Below, one piece after another: positions 26,028-31,824 of a stretch of 37,593 nucleotides of DNA. The notes beneath the pieces were generated by a model. That model searched no databases. It worked only from the letters and a program-made list of their open reading frames with translations, and was not told the DNA's origin. Source of the DNA: Promethearchaeota archaeon. GTDB lineage: Archaea; Asgardarchaeota; Lokiarchaeia; Sigyniarchaeales; SOKP01. Where the stretch lies: the NCBI GenBank assembly GCA_019057865.1, contig JAHLWP010000039.1:1-37593 (forward strand), read 5' to 3'. Numbering within the stretch: the stretch's first letter is position 1; every line of letters starts with the position of its first letter. A program made the translations under genes and the position numbers.

Positions 26028-26288
26028 TTAAATCCGAAATCCACTTTTATATGCACTTTGAGGTGCTTTTTCAATAACAACAACATTACTTGCCTGAGGC
26101 CCTTTGTTACCTTGAATAACATCAAATTCAACTTTGTCCAACTCATTCAAAGTTAAATATTCATCTTCTCCTCCAGCTAAAGCACTGTAATGAACAAATA
26201 CATCATTTCCTTCTTCAGAATTTATAAATCCATAACCTTTACGGCTATTAAACCATTTTACTGTTCCTTTGACCAATTTTATAACCAA
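26028..26288 (-). CDS. Cold-shock domain protein
   Basis: [14 protein letters not shown] (RNP1), DVFVHYS (RNP2), V.F....G.KGPQA.NV. Start uncertain (TTG 26288 or 26276). Confidence 0.93.
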
Positions 26289-28074: not shown

Positions 28075-28090
28075 AAGAAAAAATTTATAA
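28075..28090 (+). promoter_or_regulatory. Candidate BRE/TATA promoter for the leader-leuS transcript
   Basis: Purine run AAGAAAAAA followed by TTTATAA (28084-28090), 27 nt before ATG 28118. This spacing fits a leaderless archaeal transcript. Confidence 0.45.
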
Positions 28091-28117
28091 GACATAAAAG
28101 ATAAGATTTCAATATTA

Positions 28118-28204
28118 ATGATCTCTAATAATTCTGCATTAAGAACATTGTCCAAAGGGATTTTATCCTTAGATGATTTACTCTTAGCAGTTTTATTATT
28201 ATGA
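28118..28204 (+). CDS. Putative leucine-rich leader peptide of leuS
   Basis: Hand translation: MISNNSALRTLSKGILSLDDLLLAVLLL*. 10 of 28 residues are Leu, including 6 of the last 8. Ends 158 nt upstream of leuS. Confidence 0.55.
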   Translation: MISNNSALRTLSKGILSLDDLLLAVLLL

Positions 28205-28274
28205 GCAAAACAAATCCACTTAATCTTTTTCTTATAGATTTTTCACGGATTTGTTTGCTTGGTGTGTAATTTTT
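28203..28274 (+). promoter_or_regulatory. Stem-loop with U-tracts in the leuS leader (candidate attenuator)
   Basis: AGCAAAACAAATCC (28204-28217) pairs with GGATTTGTTTGCT (28247-28259): 13 bp with one bulged A. Inner stem AATCT/AGATT. T5 tracts at 28226, 28239 and 28270. Confidence 0.55.
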
Positions 28275-28362
28275 ATAAAAAAAGGTTAAAAATGGGTGAT
28301 TGTTCTATTGAGATCAAAATATAAAATTAAGATAATCAAGTATTTAGGAAGTATTTAAAATT

Positions 28363-31251
28363 ATGTACAACCCAGAACAAATAGAAAAGAAATGGCAAGA
28401 TAAATGGGAAAAAGCAAAAGTTTTTGAAGCTAATCCTGATCCAGATAAGAAAAAGATATTTTTCACATCACCTTATCCATATGCTTCTGGTACCTTACAT
28501 ATTGGCCATGGAAGGAGTTTTGTAAATGGTGATATATTTGCTAGATATTATCGAGTTAAAGGCTATAATGTTTTATATCCTATGGCTTTTCATATTACAG
28601 GGACTCCTGTTTTAGCAATATCTTCTTCTATCGAAAGAAACGATCAAGAAACAATTGTAAGAATGAAAGATTATGTGTCATTACACACTAAAGATCAAAA
28701 GAAGATAGGGCAAATTGTAAAAAGTTTTGTAGATCCTTGGAATGTGGTAAGATATTTTTCTAATACAATGAAGATTGATTTTAAATCAATTGGAATGAGT
28801 ATAGATTGGAGAAGAGAATTTACTACAGGAGACAAATTATATAATAAATTCATAGAATGGCAATACTATCAATTATCTGAACTAGGATACTTGGAAAAAG
28901 GTGAATATCCAATCCTTTATTGCCCACGATGTGAAAATGCAGTAGGTGAAGATGATATTGCAAGAGGAGACGAACTTAATTTAGATATTAATGAATACAT
29001 ATGTATAAAATTTCCTTTTAACGATGCTTATTTAGTTCCTGCTACATTAAGACCAGAGACAATTTATGGTGCAACTAATTTATGGATAAATCCAAATGGA
29101 AAATATGTCTATGCAAAAGTAAATGGAGAGAGTTGGATAATATCTGAAGAGGCAACAGATCTATTGAAAAATCAAAATAAAAATGTGAATATATTGGAGA
29201 AAATAAAAGGAGAGGAACTAATTGGCAAAAAAGCAAAAAACGTATATGGAAAAAAAGACCTTTCAGTTTTACCAGGAAATTTTGTAGATACATCAGTAGC
29301 TACCGGAGTAGTATACTCTGTACCTGCTCATGCTCCCTATGATTATATTGCCTTAATTGATTTACAAAAAAATGATGCAATAATTAAAGAATTTAATCTA
29401 AATAAGGAAGAAATAGATGGTATAGTTCCAATTCAAATTATAGATCTAGTCGGATTTGATGATATTCCTGCAAAAATCTATTGCGAAAAATTTAAAGTTC
29501 AATCACAAAAAGATATAGAGCAATTAGATAATGCAACTTCAGAAAATTATAAACATGAATTCTATAATGGTATTTTAAATGATAAATGTGACAAATATGA
29601 AGGAAAGAAAGTATTTGAAGTAGTAACGGAAGTAATTGACGATCTAATTGAGACTAATAAGGCAGAAAAATTGTACATTCCAATTACTAAAGATCTTAAA
29701 TGTAGATGTGGAGAACAGATAATTGTCTCAATTTTGAAGGATCAATGGTTTTTGAATTTCAATGCCGGAGATTGGAAGCAGAAAGCATTTGATTGCTTAA
29801 ACGAGATGGTTATTGCACCTAAAAAGTATAGAATGAATTTAGAAAATGTATTTCATTGGTTAGAGAAAAGACCTTGTGCTAGAAAGAGAGGTTTAGGAAC
29901 TAAACTTCCATTTAACAAAGAATGGATTATAGAATCTTTAAGCGATTCTACAATATATATGAGTTTCTATACAATATCATATTTGCTGAAAAAGCATAAT
30001 ATTACACCTGAGCAGTTAATACCAGAATTTTTTGATTTTGTTTTCTTGGAGAAAGGGGAACTCTCAGACATATCAAAAAAGACGAAAATCGATTCTAGGC
30101 TATTGAAACAAATGCAAGATGAATTTTTTTATTGGTATCCTGTAGATCATCGACATACTGCTATAATGCATATATCGAATCATTTGAGTTTTTATATTTT
30201 TCATCATGTCGCCATCTTTCCAAAAAAACATTGGCCAAAAATTGTTTCGCTAATCGAACCTGTGATTATAGAAGGTCAGAAAATGGGAAAGTCGAAAGGA
30301 AATATCATTCCATTGGGTTCTATTCAATCAAACTATTCTGCAGATTTATTTAGGTTCTATATCTCTCATAACGCTGATTTTGGAATAAATATGGATTGGA
30401 GAGAGAAACAGATTCAAACAGTAAGAAATCATATAAACCGATTTTATAAATTTATAGTTGAAAATATAGAAAAGATAAGAGATATTGAAGGAAAAATCGA
30501 AAATATTCAATCTAAATATTCAAAAGTAATCTTATCAAAATGTCTCAGAAAATTTATCGAAGCAGTAGATGGGTTAGAAAAATTGAATTTAAGAAAATAT
30601 CTACAATTATCATTCTACGAGGTTTTTAACCTGCTACAAGATTATATTAGATATTGTGAGGACCCAGATGATATTAAAATAGTATTCAAAATCATTTTTC
30701 CTGATTGGATTCAAATTCTCTCTTTAACTATGCCCCATCTATGTGAAGAACTATGGCAATTGATGGGAAATAAAGGATTTATATCAGAGACGATTTGGGG
30801 TGATTTTCACAGTTACCTTATTAATGATAAACTGGAAAAAGAGTATGACTACATAGCAACTGTTATAGATGATATCTCAAATATTAAGAAAATAGTAAAA
30901 TCTGGAGTTTCAAATGATATTTATTTATATACGGCTCCTAAGTGGAAAATTGCCATCTCAGACATAATCTTTTCAGAGAAAGGGAATTTCAATGAAATAT
31001 TGGCTGAATGTAAAAAAAATAAAGAGCTAATAAAAAATAAAGATCTAATTTCTTACGTTAAGAACCAAATCAAAAATAGAATTTGGGAAAAAGAACAATT
31101 TAACTTTAATGAGAATGAAATTCTAGAAGAATACAAAAACCATATTGAAAAGAGAATCAATAATACAATAATTATCAATTCAGAATATGATCCAAATACT
31201 CGTGCCGGAAAAGCTGTACCCTATAAACCAGCAATTTACATAAAAACTTAA
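28363..31251 (+). CDS. leuS: Leucine--tRNA ligase, archaeal/eukaryotic type
   Basis: PYPY.SG.LHIGH, PMAFHITGTP, IDWRREFTT, editing domain ATLRPETIYG.TN.W and GVV.SVPAHAPYDY, WIIESLSDSTIYM.FYTI, YWYP.D, NHL.F, KMGKSKGN. Confidence 0.97.
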   Translation: MYNPEQIEKKWQDKWEKAKVFEANPDPDKKKIFFTSPYPYASGTLHIGHGRSFVNGDIFARYYRVKGYNVLYPMAFHITGTPVLAISSSIERNDQETIVRMKDYVSLHTKDQKKIGQIVKSFVDPWNVVRYFSNTMKIDFKSIGMSIDWRREFTTGDKLYNKFIEWQYYQLSELGYLEKGEYPILYCPRCENAVGEDDIARGDELNLDINEYICIKFPFNDAYLVPATLRPETIYGATNLWINPNGKYVYAKVNGESWIISEEATDLLKNQNKNVNILEKIKGEELIGKKAKNVYGKKDLSVLPGNFVDTSVATGVVYSVPAHAPYDYIALIDLQKNDAIIKEFNLNKEEIDGIVPIQIIDLVGFDDIPAKIYCEKFKVQSQKDIEQLDNATSENYKHEFYNGILNDKCDKYEGKKVFEVVTEVIDDLIETNKAEKLYIPITKDLKCRCGEQIIVSILKDQWFLNFNAGDWKQKAFDCLNEMVIAPKKYRMNLENVFHWLEKRPCARKRGLGTKLPFNKEWIIESLSDSTIYMSFYTISYLLKKHNITPEQLIPEFFDFVFLEKGELSDISKKTKIDSRLLKQMQDEFFYWYPVDHRHTAIMHISNHLSFYIFHHVAIFPKKHWPKIVSLIEPVIIEGQKMGKSKGNIIPLGSIQSNYSADLFRFYISHNADFGINMDWREKQIQTVRNHINRFYKFIVENIEKIRDIEGKIENIQSKYSKVILSKCLRKFIEAVDGLEKLNLRKYLQLSFYEVFNLLQDYIRYCEDPDDIKIVFKIIFPDWIQILSLTMPHLCEELWQLMGNKGFISETIWGDFHSYLINDKLEKEYDYIATVIDDISNIKKIVKSGVSNDIYLYTAPKWKIAISDIIFSEKGNFNEILAECKKNKELIKNKDLISYVKNQIKNRIWEKEQFNFNENEILEEYKNHIEKRINNTIIINSEYDPNTRAGKAVPYKPAIYIKT

Positions 31252-31263
31252 GCTTAAAATTCA

Positions 31264-31824
31264 TTAGTTTTCTCCTTTTTCTAATTTGCTTATAAAATTA
31301 GGAGGAATAAAATCTGTCAAATATAAATCTCCAGATTCATAAAAAATCATTCCCTCTTTTCTAGCAGTTTCAGTATTTATTTTAAGAATTATCGGATCAT
31401 TCGTCCTACGCTTTCCTACTAATATAGCATCTTCGACATTGCCTGATAAATGAACATATTGGCGATTCTCACTTTTTAACCCTTCCTTAATTATTCTTTC
31501 ATATGCTTTTTTAGTAGTCCCATGAAATAAAAAAGGAGGTAAAATTTCTGCTTCCTTCATTTTAATTTTCTTTTTTAGGCTATGACCATAAAATGCTCTA
31601 ATCTTATTCTCAACTATTTCAAACCTTCTCTTATCAGATTCAAGTATAATTTTTTCAATTAATTCTTCTGTAATTTCTTTATCTTGGTATCTAGAGTTTA
31701 GAATTTTCAAAACAGCATTTAAATCAGCATAACCTTCTAAATCAAGCTGTAAATGGAATTTTTCCGGATCATGTCTCAAAATGTATGCTAAAAATTTTGA
31801 GATTTTAATATAAAACTCTTTCAA
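31264..31824 (-). CDS. kptA: RNA 2'-phosphotransferase (KptA/Tpt1)
   Basis: SKFL.YILRH.P, KRRFE, IRAFYGHS, LFHGT, R.YVHLS, A..VGKR. Confidence 0.93.
   Translation of the reverse strand: MKEFYIKISKFLAYILRHDPEKFHLQLDLEGYADLNAVLKILNSRYQDKEITEELIEKIILESDKRRFEIVENKIRAFYGHSLKKKIKMKEAEILPPFLFHGTTKKAYERIIKEGLKSENRQYVHLSGNVEDAILVGKRRTNDPIILKINTETARKEGMIFYESGDLYLTDFIPPNFISKLEKGEN

Follow-up and report, generated by a model that had tools for sequence, protein, structure and literature searches.

Ribosome-mediated attenuation in response to amino acids is a textbook bacterial mechanism. In the trpL and leuL leaders of Escherichia coli, the sensing codons are base-paired to the 5′ region of the leader in a 1:2-like helix, which is followed by two competing helices; in Rho-dependent leader-peptide attenuators of the Salmonella mgtA/mgtL type, the site at which a termination factor loads is exposed in one fold and hidden in a competing one. 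A study of a Trp minigene at trpY of Methanothermobacter reportedly offers a possible archaeal precedent. No published report of archaeal ribosome-mediated amino-acid attenuation was found in the literature searched, beyond whose reach most subscription papers lay. The corA leader is of the Rho-dependent leader-peptide type (PMC13675443). The ilvB and leuA leaders of Streptomyces coelicolor, which look similar to the leader described here, did not act as attenuators of the classical kind (PMC1262725).

Here, we describe a leader upstream of leuS on a 37,593-nt stretch of DNA (the window) from a Promethearchaeota genome with a GC content of 29%. The leader is real, conserved, and very probably regulatory, and its mechanism is predicted from comparisons of sequences and folds. 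It combines a Leu-rich upstream ORF (uORF) with three RNA helices, P1, P2, and P3 (Table 1). With E. coli pheM-pheST and the predicted Streptomyces leuS and trpS attenuators (PMC1262725), it shares a cognate-rich ORF at a synthetase gene, alternative helices, and one helix arm lying under a ribosome at the stop codon. Unlike these systems, it has an archaeal TATA promoter, a probably near-leaderless uORF, and no GC hairpin with a U-run terminator, and its U-tracts sit inside the loop of the stop-proximal helix, to be hidden by a third helix. The succession of a 1:2-like helix and a competing pair of helices recalls trpL and leuL, from which the leader differs in that P1 does not overlap P2, an intrinsic terminator is missing, the effector would be a CPSF73-type nuclease, and no Rfam family (Leu_leader, T-box, or others) matches at gathering score, the only hits being sub-threshold chance matches. 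A T-box-like UGGN 3′ of P2 was, as judged by eye, not conserved.

Closest in logic are the Rho-dependent attenuators, although the putative factor here is aCPSF1/FttA on U4 tracts rather than Rho on C-rich RNA. The leaderless polycysteine uORFs of mycobacteria (10.1101/834739) likewise are short ORFs with a terminal run of cognate codons, whereas the switch helices at leuS sit well upstream of the regulated start codon. Set beside classical leader-peptide attenuators, the leader has a cognate-rich ORF conserved at the cognate gene and, judging from folding models and topology, exclusive helices of which one is blocked by a ribosome at the stop, but it lacks the intrinsic terminator; set beside factor-dependent (Rho-like) ones, it has a candidate loading site inside the switchable region and a factor encoded in the genome. 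It thus resembles bacterial synthetase attenuators and Rho-gated leaders in logic without being a member of these classes, failing on the intrinsic terminator and on the Rfam match.

The Rfam family RF03001 (leuA-Halobacteria) is, like the leuS leader, an archaeal RNA motif at a leucine-related gene, but it has no match in this genome. It was rejected as a precedent for a Leu leader peptide, since the ORFs over 16 halobacterial matches contain no Leu run. At these matches (L236-L251, Halobacteriota), the motif is spanned by a short ORF, conserved in its DRGSR-like core, which overlaps, in another frame, a leuA/cimA-like open frame that has no clear start there. The overlap looks like a programmed frameshift or a non-canonical start site.

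Layout and promoter of the leuS leader

The TATA word, the ORF, the 13-bp stem, the U5 tracts, and leuS were all found where the original prediction had placed them. The gene product scored 936.7 bits against the archaeal LeuRS profile TIGR00395 (leuS_arch; cut-off, 648.5). The gene upstream is divergent, so the leuS leader needs its own promoter. Relative to the uORF ATG, a TATA-like word starts at −34 in 34 of the 60 family loci examined and between −35 and −28 in 56 of them; in this leader it reads TTTATAA (28084-28090). This spacing approximates that of leaderless genes, for which TTTAWA peaks genome-wide at −32 to −29 from start codons, and makes a near-leaderless transcript probable, with a predicted start at about 28111-28117. 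No SD-like word precedes the uORF ATG in this leader. A promoter near 28272, downstream of the hairpin, had been considered as a possible source of leuS transcripts; a TATA-like word occurs there in only 5 of 60 loci and in this leader forms part of the P3 3′ arm.

Table 1. Features of the leuS leader and the downstream gene, in window positions
Feature	Positions	Strand	Evidence
Putative promoter: purine-rich BRE-like stretch and TATA box (34 nt 5′ of the uORF ATG)	28075-28091	+	
Leu-rich leader ORF, 28 codons, 10 Leu	28118-28204	+	Present in 60/60 family loci
P1 5′ arm (uORF codons 3-7)	28126-28137	+	Swapped-partner test, z = −8.7; fold
P1 3′ arm (start of the terminal Leu run)	28187-28198	+	Swapped-partner test, covariation, fold
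P2 5′ arm, from the uORF stop codon	28204-28217	+	Covariation; swapped-partner test, z = −10.1
P3 5′ arm, in the P2 loop, including the first U5 tract (28226-28230)	28214-28238	+	Covariation; swapped-partner test, z = −9.6
Two U-tracts, candidate aCPSF1/FttA signal	28226-28230, 28239-28243	+	U4 tract counts across leaders
P2 3′ arm	28247-28260	+	Fold, swapped-partner test, covariation
P3 3′ arm (purine tract and outer extension)	28272-28297	+	Folds across leaders
Short pyrimidine-rich stretch, then A-rich spacer with SD-like AGGA at 28346-28349	28298-28362	+	
leuS, archaeal-type leucine–tRNA ligase, putatively regulated gene	28363-31251	+	NF008957 and TIGR00395 over cut-off

A conserved Leu-rich uORF at leuS

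With 8 Leu in its last 13 codons, the leuS uORF ranks first, and alone at that count, among the 3,933 intergenic ATG-uORFs of this genome; by the best-window binomial score for Leu it is second. The Leu enrichment proposed in the original prediction thus exceeds chance, and the worry raised with it, that equally Leu-rich uORFs might be frequent in intergenic DNA, found no instance for the 3′ end. Genomes of the same family matched this leuS in 73 of 135 cases, and 60 loci from four genera were examined, which are kin rather than independent samples. The uORF is present at all 60, with an intact frame of 26 to 31 codons, including loci whose LeuRS is only ∼37% identical. The ATG is invariant, the stop codons are exchanged (TGA, 36; TAA, 21; TAG, 3), and no fixed frame links the uORF to leuS across the 60 loci. 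Both leuS loci examined from another family lack the uORF. A reinitiated second ORF at the uORF stop was ruled out, not being conserved in the family loci.

The middle of the peptide is nearly free to vary, differing at rates of 0.37, 0.43, and 0.45 at the three codon positions, and is always free of stop codons, versus ∼29% of shuffled middles. Because the uORFs had been selected for an open frame, what is not circular here is the constant placement of ATG and stop with respect to promoter and helices. The Leu codons are spread over positions 8 to 28, the last three being the most invariant. A caveat attached to the original prediction, that 8 of the 10 Leu codons are TTA (the others are one TTG and one CTC) and that TTA is common in AT-rich DNA, is largely answered: TTA makes up 52% of Leu codons genome-wide, P1 pairing constrains the terminal codons, and Leu 18, 21, and 22 are kept through TTA/TTG/CTA and CTC/CTT exchanges outside P1 and any other conserved helix. 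Conserved Leu-rich uORFs, synonymous variation, and stem covariation, which had been suggested as checks at leuS of relatives, were all found in the family loci.

At four loci (L022 and L101-L103), the same leader lies 5′ of a LeuRS gene whose product is only ∼40% identical. The leader DNA of L022 is 63-69% identical to the others, and its LeuRS, 36-38% identical, is archaeal-type and lies at the syntenic site; gene replacement in place behind a retained leader is possible.

Covarying helices and ribosome positions

The leuS leader folds more stably than expected from 200 shuffles (z = −3.5), and three helices are supported by the comparison of leaders. P1 brings together the 5′ part of the uORF and its terminal Leu run; P2, in this leader a 13-bp stem with one bulged base that pairs 28204-28217 with 28247-28259, starts at the stop codon; and P3 pairs a U-tract of the P2 loop with a purine tract ∼70-90 nt 3′ of the stop. 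When arms were swapped among 58 leaders, own arms outpaired foreign arms for each helix (z values in Table 1), and four control pairings were null in the same test. Alternative partners for the P1 arms were null too. P2 has 92% of its cells paired (slid controls, 37-51%) and, by parsimony, no fewer than 16 independent compensatory changes, and the P3 core has 85% (slid controls, 53-60%), with at least 20 such changes; pair counts for P1, taken in whichever register fits each sequence best, are biased upward. P1 and P2 persist in the most distant locus (L088), where P3 was not recovered. A weak covarying pairing (z = −4.3) also joins the P2 5′ arm to the pyrimidine-rich stretch 3′ of P3.

Folding models suggest an order among these helices. 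P2 appears in 58/58 prefix folds and P3 in 52/59 full-leader folds, consistent with P2 being able to form first on the growing RNA and P3 winning on the full-length RNA. Given its length (median, 20 bp in 58 leaders), P3 could probably not form alongside P2 in a pseudoknot, and models and topology together point to mutual exclusion of the two.

Ribosomes were placed on the folds with a distance of 15-16 nt from the P-site to the 3′ edge of the footprint (PMC7261190). The proposal that a ribosome at the stop codon covers the 5′ arm of the stem agrees with the outcome: this position removes P2 in 58 of 59 leaders, and a stall 7 codons earlier leaves it in all 59. Stalls on the last Leu codons weaken P2 stepwise, the mean fold rising from −16.8 to −7.3 kcal/mol at the last Leu; with the ribosome stalled there, P2 still forms in 49 of 59 leaders.

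U-tracts in the P2 loop

U-tracts had been proposed as an archaeal termination-type signal, and a conserved candidate of the aCPSF1 type emerged. At least two U4 tracts lie in the P2 loop of 42 of 58 leaders, versus 26% of shuffled loops and 10% and 17% of two genomic controls, and such sets of tracts occur almost nowhere else in the 58 leaders. In 12 of these leaders, the U4 run is missing from the P3 5′ arm and the pairing is still kept. Two U4 tracts are required by aCPSF1, a Lokiarchaeal orthologue of which showed the same preference in M. maripaludis (PMC8716108), and FttA favors U-rich sequence at −30 to −36 (PMC11616081). This genome encodes aCPSF1 (TIGR03675 over cut-off). Two parts of the original prediction did not survive the comparison: masking of the U-tracts by pairing within the stem is not conserved, since they sit in the ∼30-nt P2 loop and it is the competing helix P3 that pairs them, and the third U5 tract (28270-28274) is not conserved across the family as part of the element.

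No bacterial-type intrinsic terminator, i.e., a compact GC hairpin with an immediate U-run, was found at the leuS leader. TTTT follows P3 in only 9 of 58 leaders, and the sequence there is ∼50% T with no conserved U-run; P3 without a following U-run reads as a mask rather than a terminator hairpin. P3 ends ∼40-70 nt 5′ of the leuS start, in an A-rich region (the 50 nt directly 5′ of leuS average 50% A). That the helices end well 5′ of the start, before an A-rich spacer, argues against a hidden ribosome-binding site.

Cognate-rich uORFs at other genes

The expectation that further synthetase and biosynthesis genes carry cognate-rich uORFs held for Trp at trpB2 and Phe at pheS, and failed at ten other synthetase genes of this genome: no leader with an ATG start was found at ileS, valS, thrS, hisS, tyrS, trpS, cysS, serS, proS, or glyS. 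None was found at two HMGL-family genes and asd either, and members of the trpE and hisG families were searched for in this genome without a match.

The top-ranking Trp-rich uORF is located upstream of trpB2 (L033:2964-3036; G000 C80), and its WQWPW core is conserved in the genus. Such uORFs occur at 17/17 trpB2 loci of the genus and at 12/13 loci from three other families; candidate Trp-rich frames, unconfirmed by alignment, also lie 5′ of trpB2 in single loci of at least 4 further families of the phylum. Named Promethearchaeota MAGs have the same leader type and motif at trpB2, which fits an Asgard origin of the window. Outside Asgard archaea, 13 of 76 trpB2 loci pass a loose two-Trp filter, of which ∼4 are convincing, all bacterial; the Trp-run uORFs at L154, L155, L165, and L198 are probably ordinary trp leaders. 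The trpB2 leaders of family f2 (L061-L067) have a strong hairpin that begins ∼5 nt beyond the final Trp codon; a short conserved motif and U4 come after it.

At pheS, a uORF rich in Phe, its stop codon covered by a hairpin, lies 296-209 nt upstream on the minus strand (L109; G000 C66). The arrangement recurs in 10/10 distinct readable loci of the genus and probably in two loci of another family. A 3-codon mini-ORF precedes the uORF in five pheS leaders, and in three others its ATG opens the uORF. The pheS and f2 trpB2 hairpins both begin ∼5 nt beyond the final cognate codon and almost vanish when the ribosome stalls on that codon.

A predicted race between ribosome and polymerase

Conservation of the Leu codons and covariation of the helices support the core of the original prediction, namely that a leader peptide reads leucine and is linked to an RNA switch. 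Leucine sensing by a ribosome reading the leuS leader is highly probable on these grounds; the direction of the switch and its effector, which we infer, are an evenly balanced matter. Our best model, held with equal reserve and conviction, is a race between ribosome and polymerase that would gauge Leu-tRNA charging and control read-through into leuS. P1 would act as a pause or synchronizing hairpin that starts both machines on a race of ∼26 codons; it ends ∼7-10 nt before the uORF end, so the pause would sit near the stop. When leucine is plentiful, the ribosome would reach the stop as the P2 3′ arm emerges and block P2, leaving the U-rich stretch single-stranded for cleavage by aCPSF1/FttA and premature termination (OFF). 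When Leu-tRNA is scarce, a delay at any Leu codon would let P2 close over the U-tracts while the polymerase passes the window for termination, and P3 would later pair the U-tract and lock the read-through RNA (ON). Assuming equal speeds, the polymerase would be ∼80 nt past the stop 26 codons later, between the points at which P2 (∼+72) and P3 (∼+94) can first form. The race model would account for P1, the fixed uORF length with its free middle, the Leu spread from 8 to 28, the position of P2 at the stop, the U4 pair, and P3 without a U-run. Against it stand a P1 pause borrowed by analogy from bacteria; the FttA register (PMC11616081), by which the first U-tract would be in register before P2 forms, so that P2 could protect only a later window; and the U-tracts lying unpaired inside the P2 loop, together with the weakening of P2 by terminal-Leu stalls, which fits a reverse logic. 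The 12 leaders that keep the P3 pairing without a U4 run in its 5′ arm, the kinship of the loci, and the behavior of the S. coelicolor ilvB and leuA leaders also count against it.

That reverse logic keeps the sensor and turns the switch around: P2 would be the OFF fold adopted after the ribosome leaves, with the U-tracts exposed and P3 forbidden, and a ribosome on the terminal Leu run would weaken P2, so that P3 hides the U-tract and leuS is read. It draws on the pairing of the U-tract by P3 and not by P2, on the invariance of the last three Leu codons, and on the near-removal of the pheS and f2 trpB2 hairpins by a stall on the last cognate codon, a geometry that fits the reverse switch as well as the race. 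We nevertheless consider it unlikely, if the most serious contender, because at leuS P2 is only weakened by a terminal stall (still formed in 49/59 leaders) but lost with the ribosome at the stop, stalls at Leu 18, 21, and 22, which are conserved, would yield the wrong output, and P3 is possible only with the U-tracts 50-70 nt behind the polymerase, beyond the FttA optimum (PMC11616081). The same sensor could also feed an output other than aCPSF1-dependent termination, with P3 as a hairpin-assisted terminator or with RNA decay or translation initiation as the regulated step. The rarity of TTTT after P3 (9/58), the lack of a bacterial-type terminator, and the end of P3 ∼40-70 nt before the leuS start in an A-rich region, with no ribosome-binding site hidden, make this improbable, despite the length of P3 (median, 20 bp) and the ∼50% T beyond it, the ability of hairpin/U terminators to stop archaeal polymerase (review PMC13675443), and the control of downstream genes by leaderless cognate-codon uORFs in mycobacteria (10.1101/834739).

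Readings that dispense with decoding of the Leu codons fare worse. An invariant ATG, a fixed frame, exchanged stop codons, and synonymous Leu changes outside P1 are hard to reconcile with a protein-binding or tRNA-mimic element (e.g., LeuRS autoregulation) whose Leu codons are a by-product of AT-rich pairing, as are Trp and Phe leaders matched to their own genes; an acting peptide sits poorly with an unconserved middle. Although P1 does constrain part of the Leu run and the actinobacterial LEU element (PMC1262725) is a precedent, we regard this explanation as quite improbable. Frameshifting or read-through from the uORF into leuS, or a pattern due wholly to chance, is the least credible: of 59 loci, none has a read-through frame that comes within 20 nt of leuS, 4 do so in the +1 frame and 3 in the −1 frame, with no frame conserved, and chance is excluded by the rank among 3,933 uORFs, the 60/60 recurrence, and the swapped-partner covariation.

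The ribosome-polymerase race, if true, would mean that transcription and translation are tightly coupled and timed in the closest archaeal relatives of eukaryotes and that aCPSF1/FttA has a regulatory role, and the leader would be a compact element for testing both. Tentatively, and with slightly more doubt than for leuS itself, Asgard archaea may gauge tRNA charging through a set of leader peptides (Leu, Trp, and Phe), with a ribosome-timed switch gating aCPSF1, a CPSF73/INTS11 homologue, in regulated premature termination.

Other LeuRS copies and neighboring genes

Most genomes of the genus that carry this leuS encode a second LeuRS of ∼931-955 aa, which has a bacterial-type catalytic region and no such leader; the leader-bearing leuS looks like an adjustable second enzyme. 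Two LeuRS copies of the other type in this assembly appear broken (L035 and L036; C73:12022-13041 and C49:5011-7941), one lying in several reading frames and one truncated after ∼340 aa, through possible assembly error or decay. Many genomes of the genus have a further class-I synthetase-like ORF of ∼950-970 aa with 27-31% identity to this LeuRS. In the window, a bacterial-type cold-shock protein of the CspA/CspE family is encoded two genes from the leader (26028-26288, minus strand), and an RNA 2′-phosphotransferase (KptA/Tpt1-like; 31264-31824, minus strand) is convergent with leuS, with 12 nt between the stop codons.
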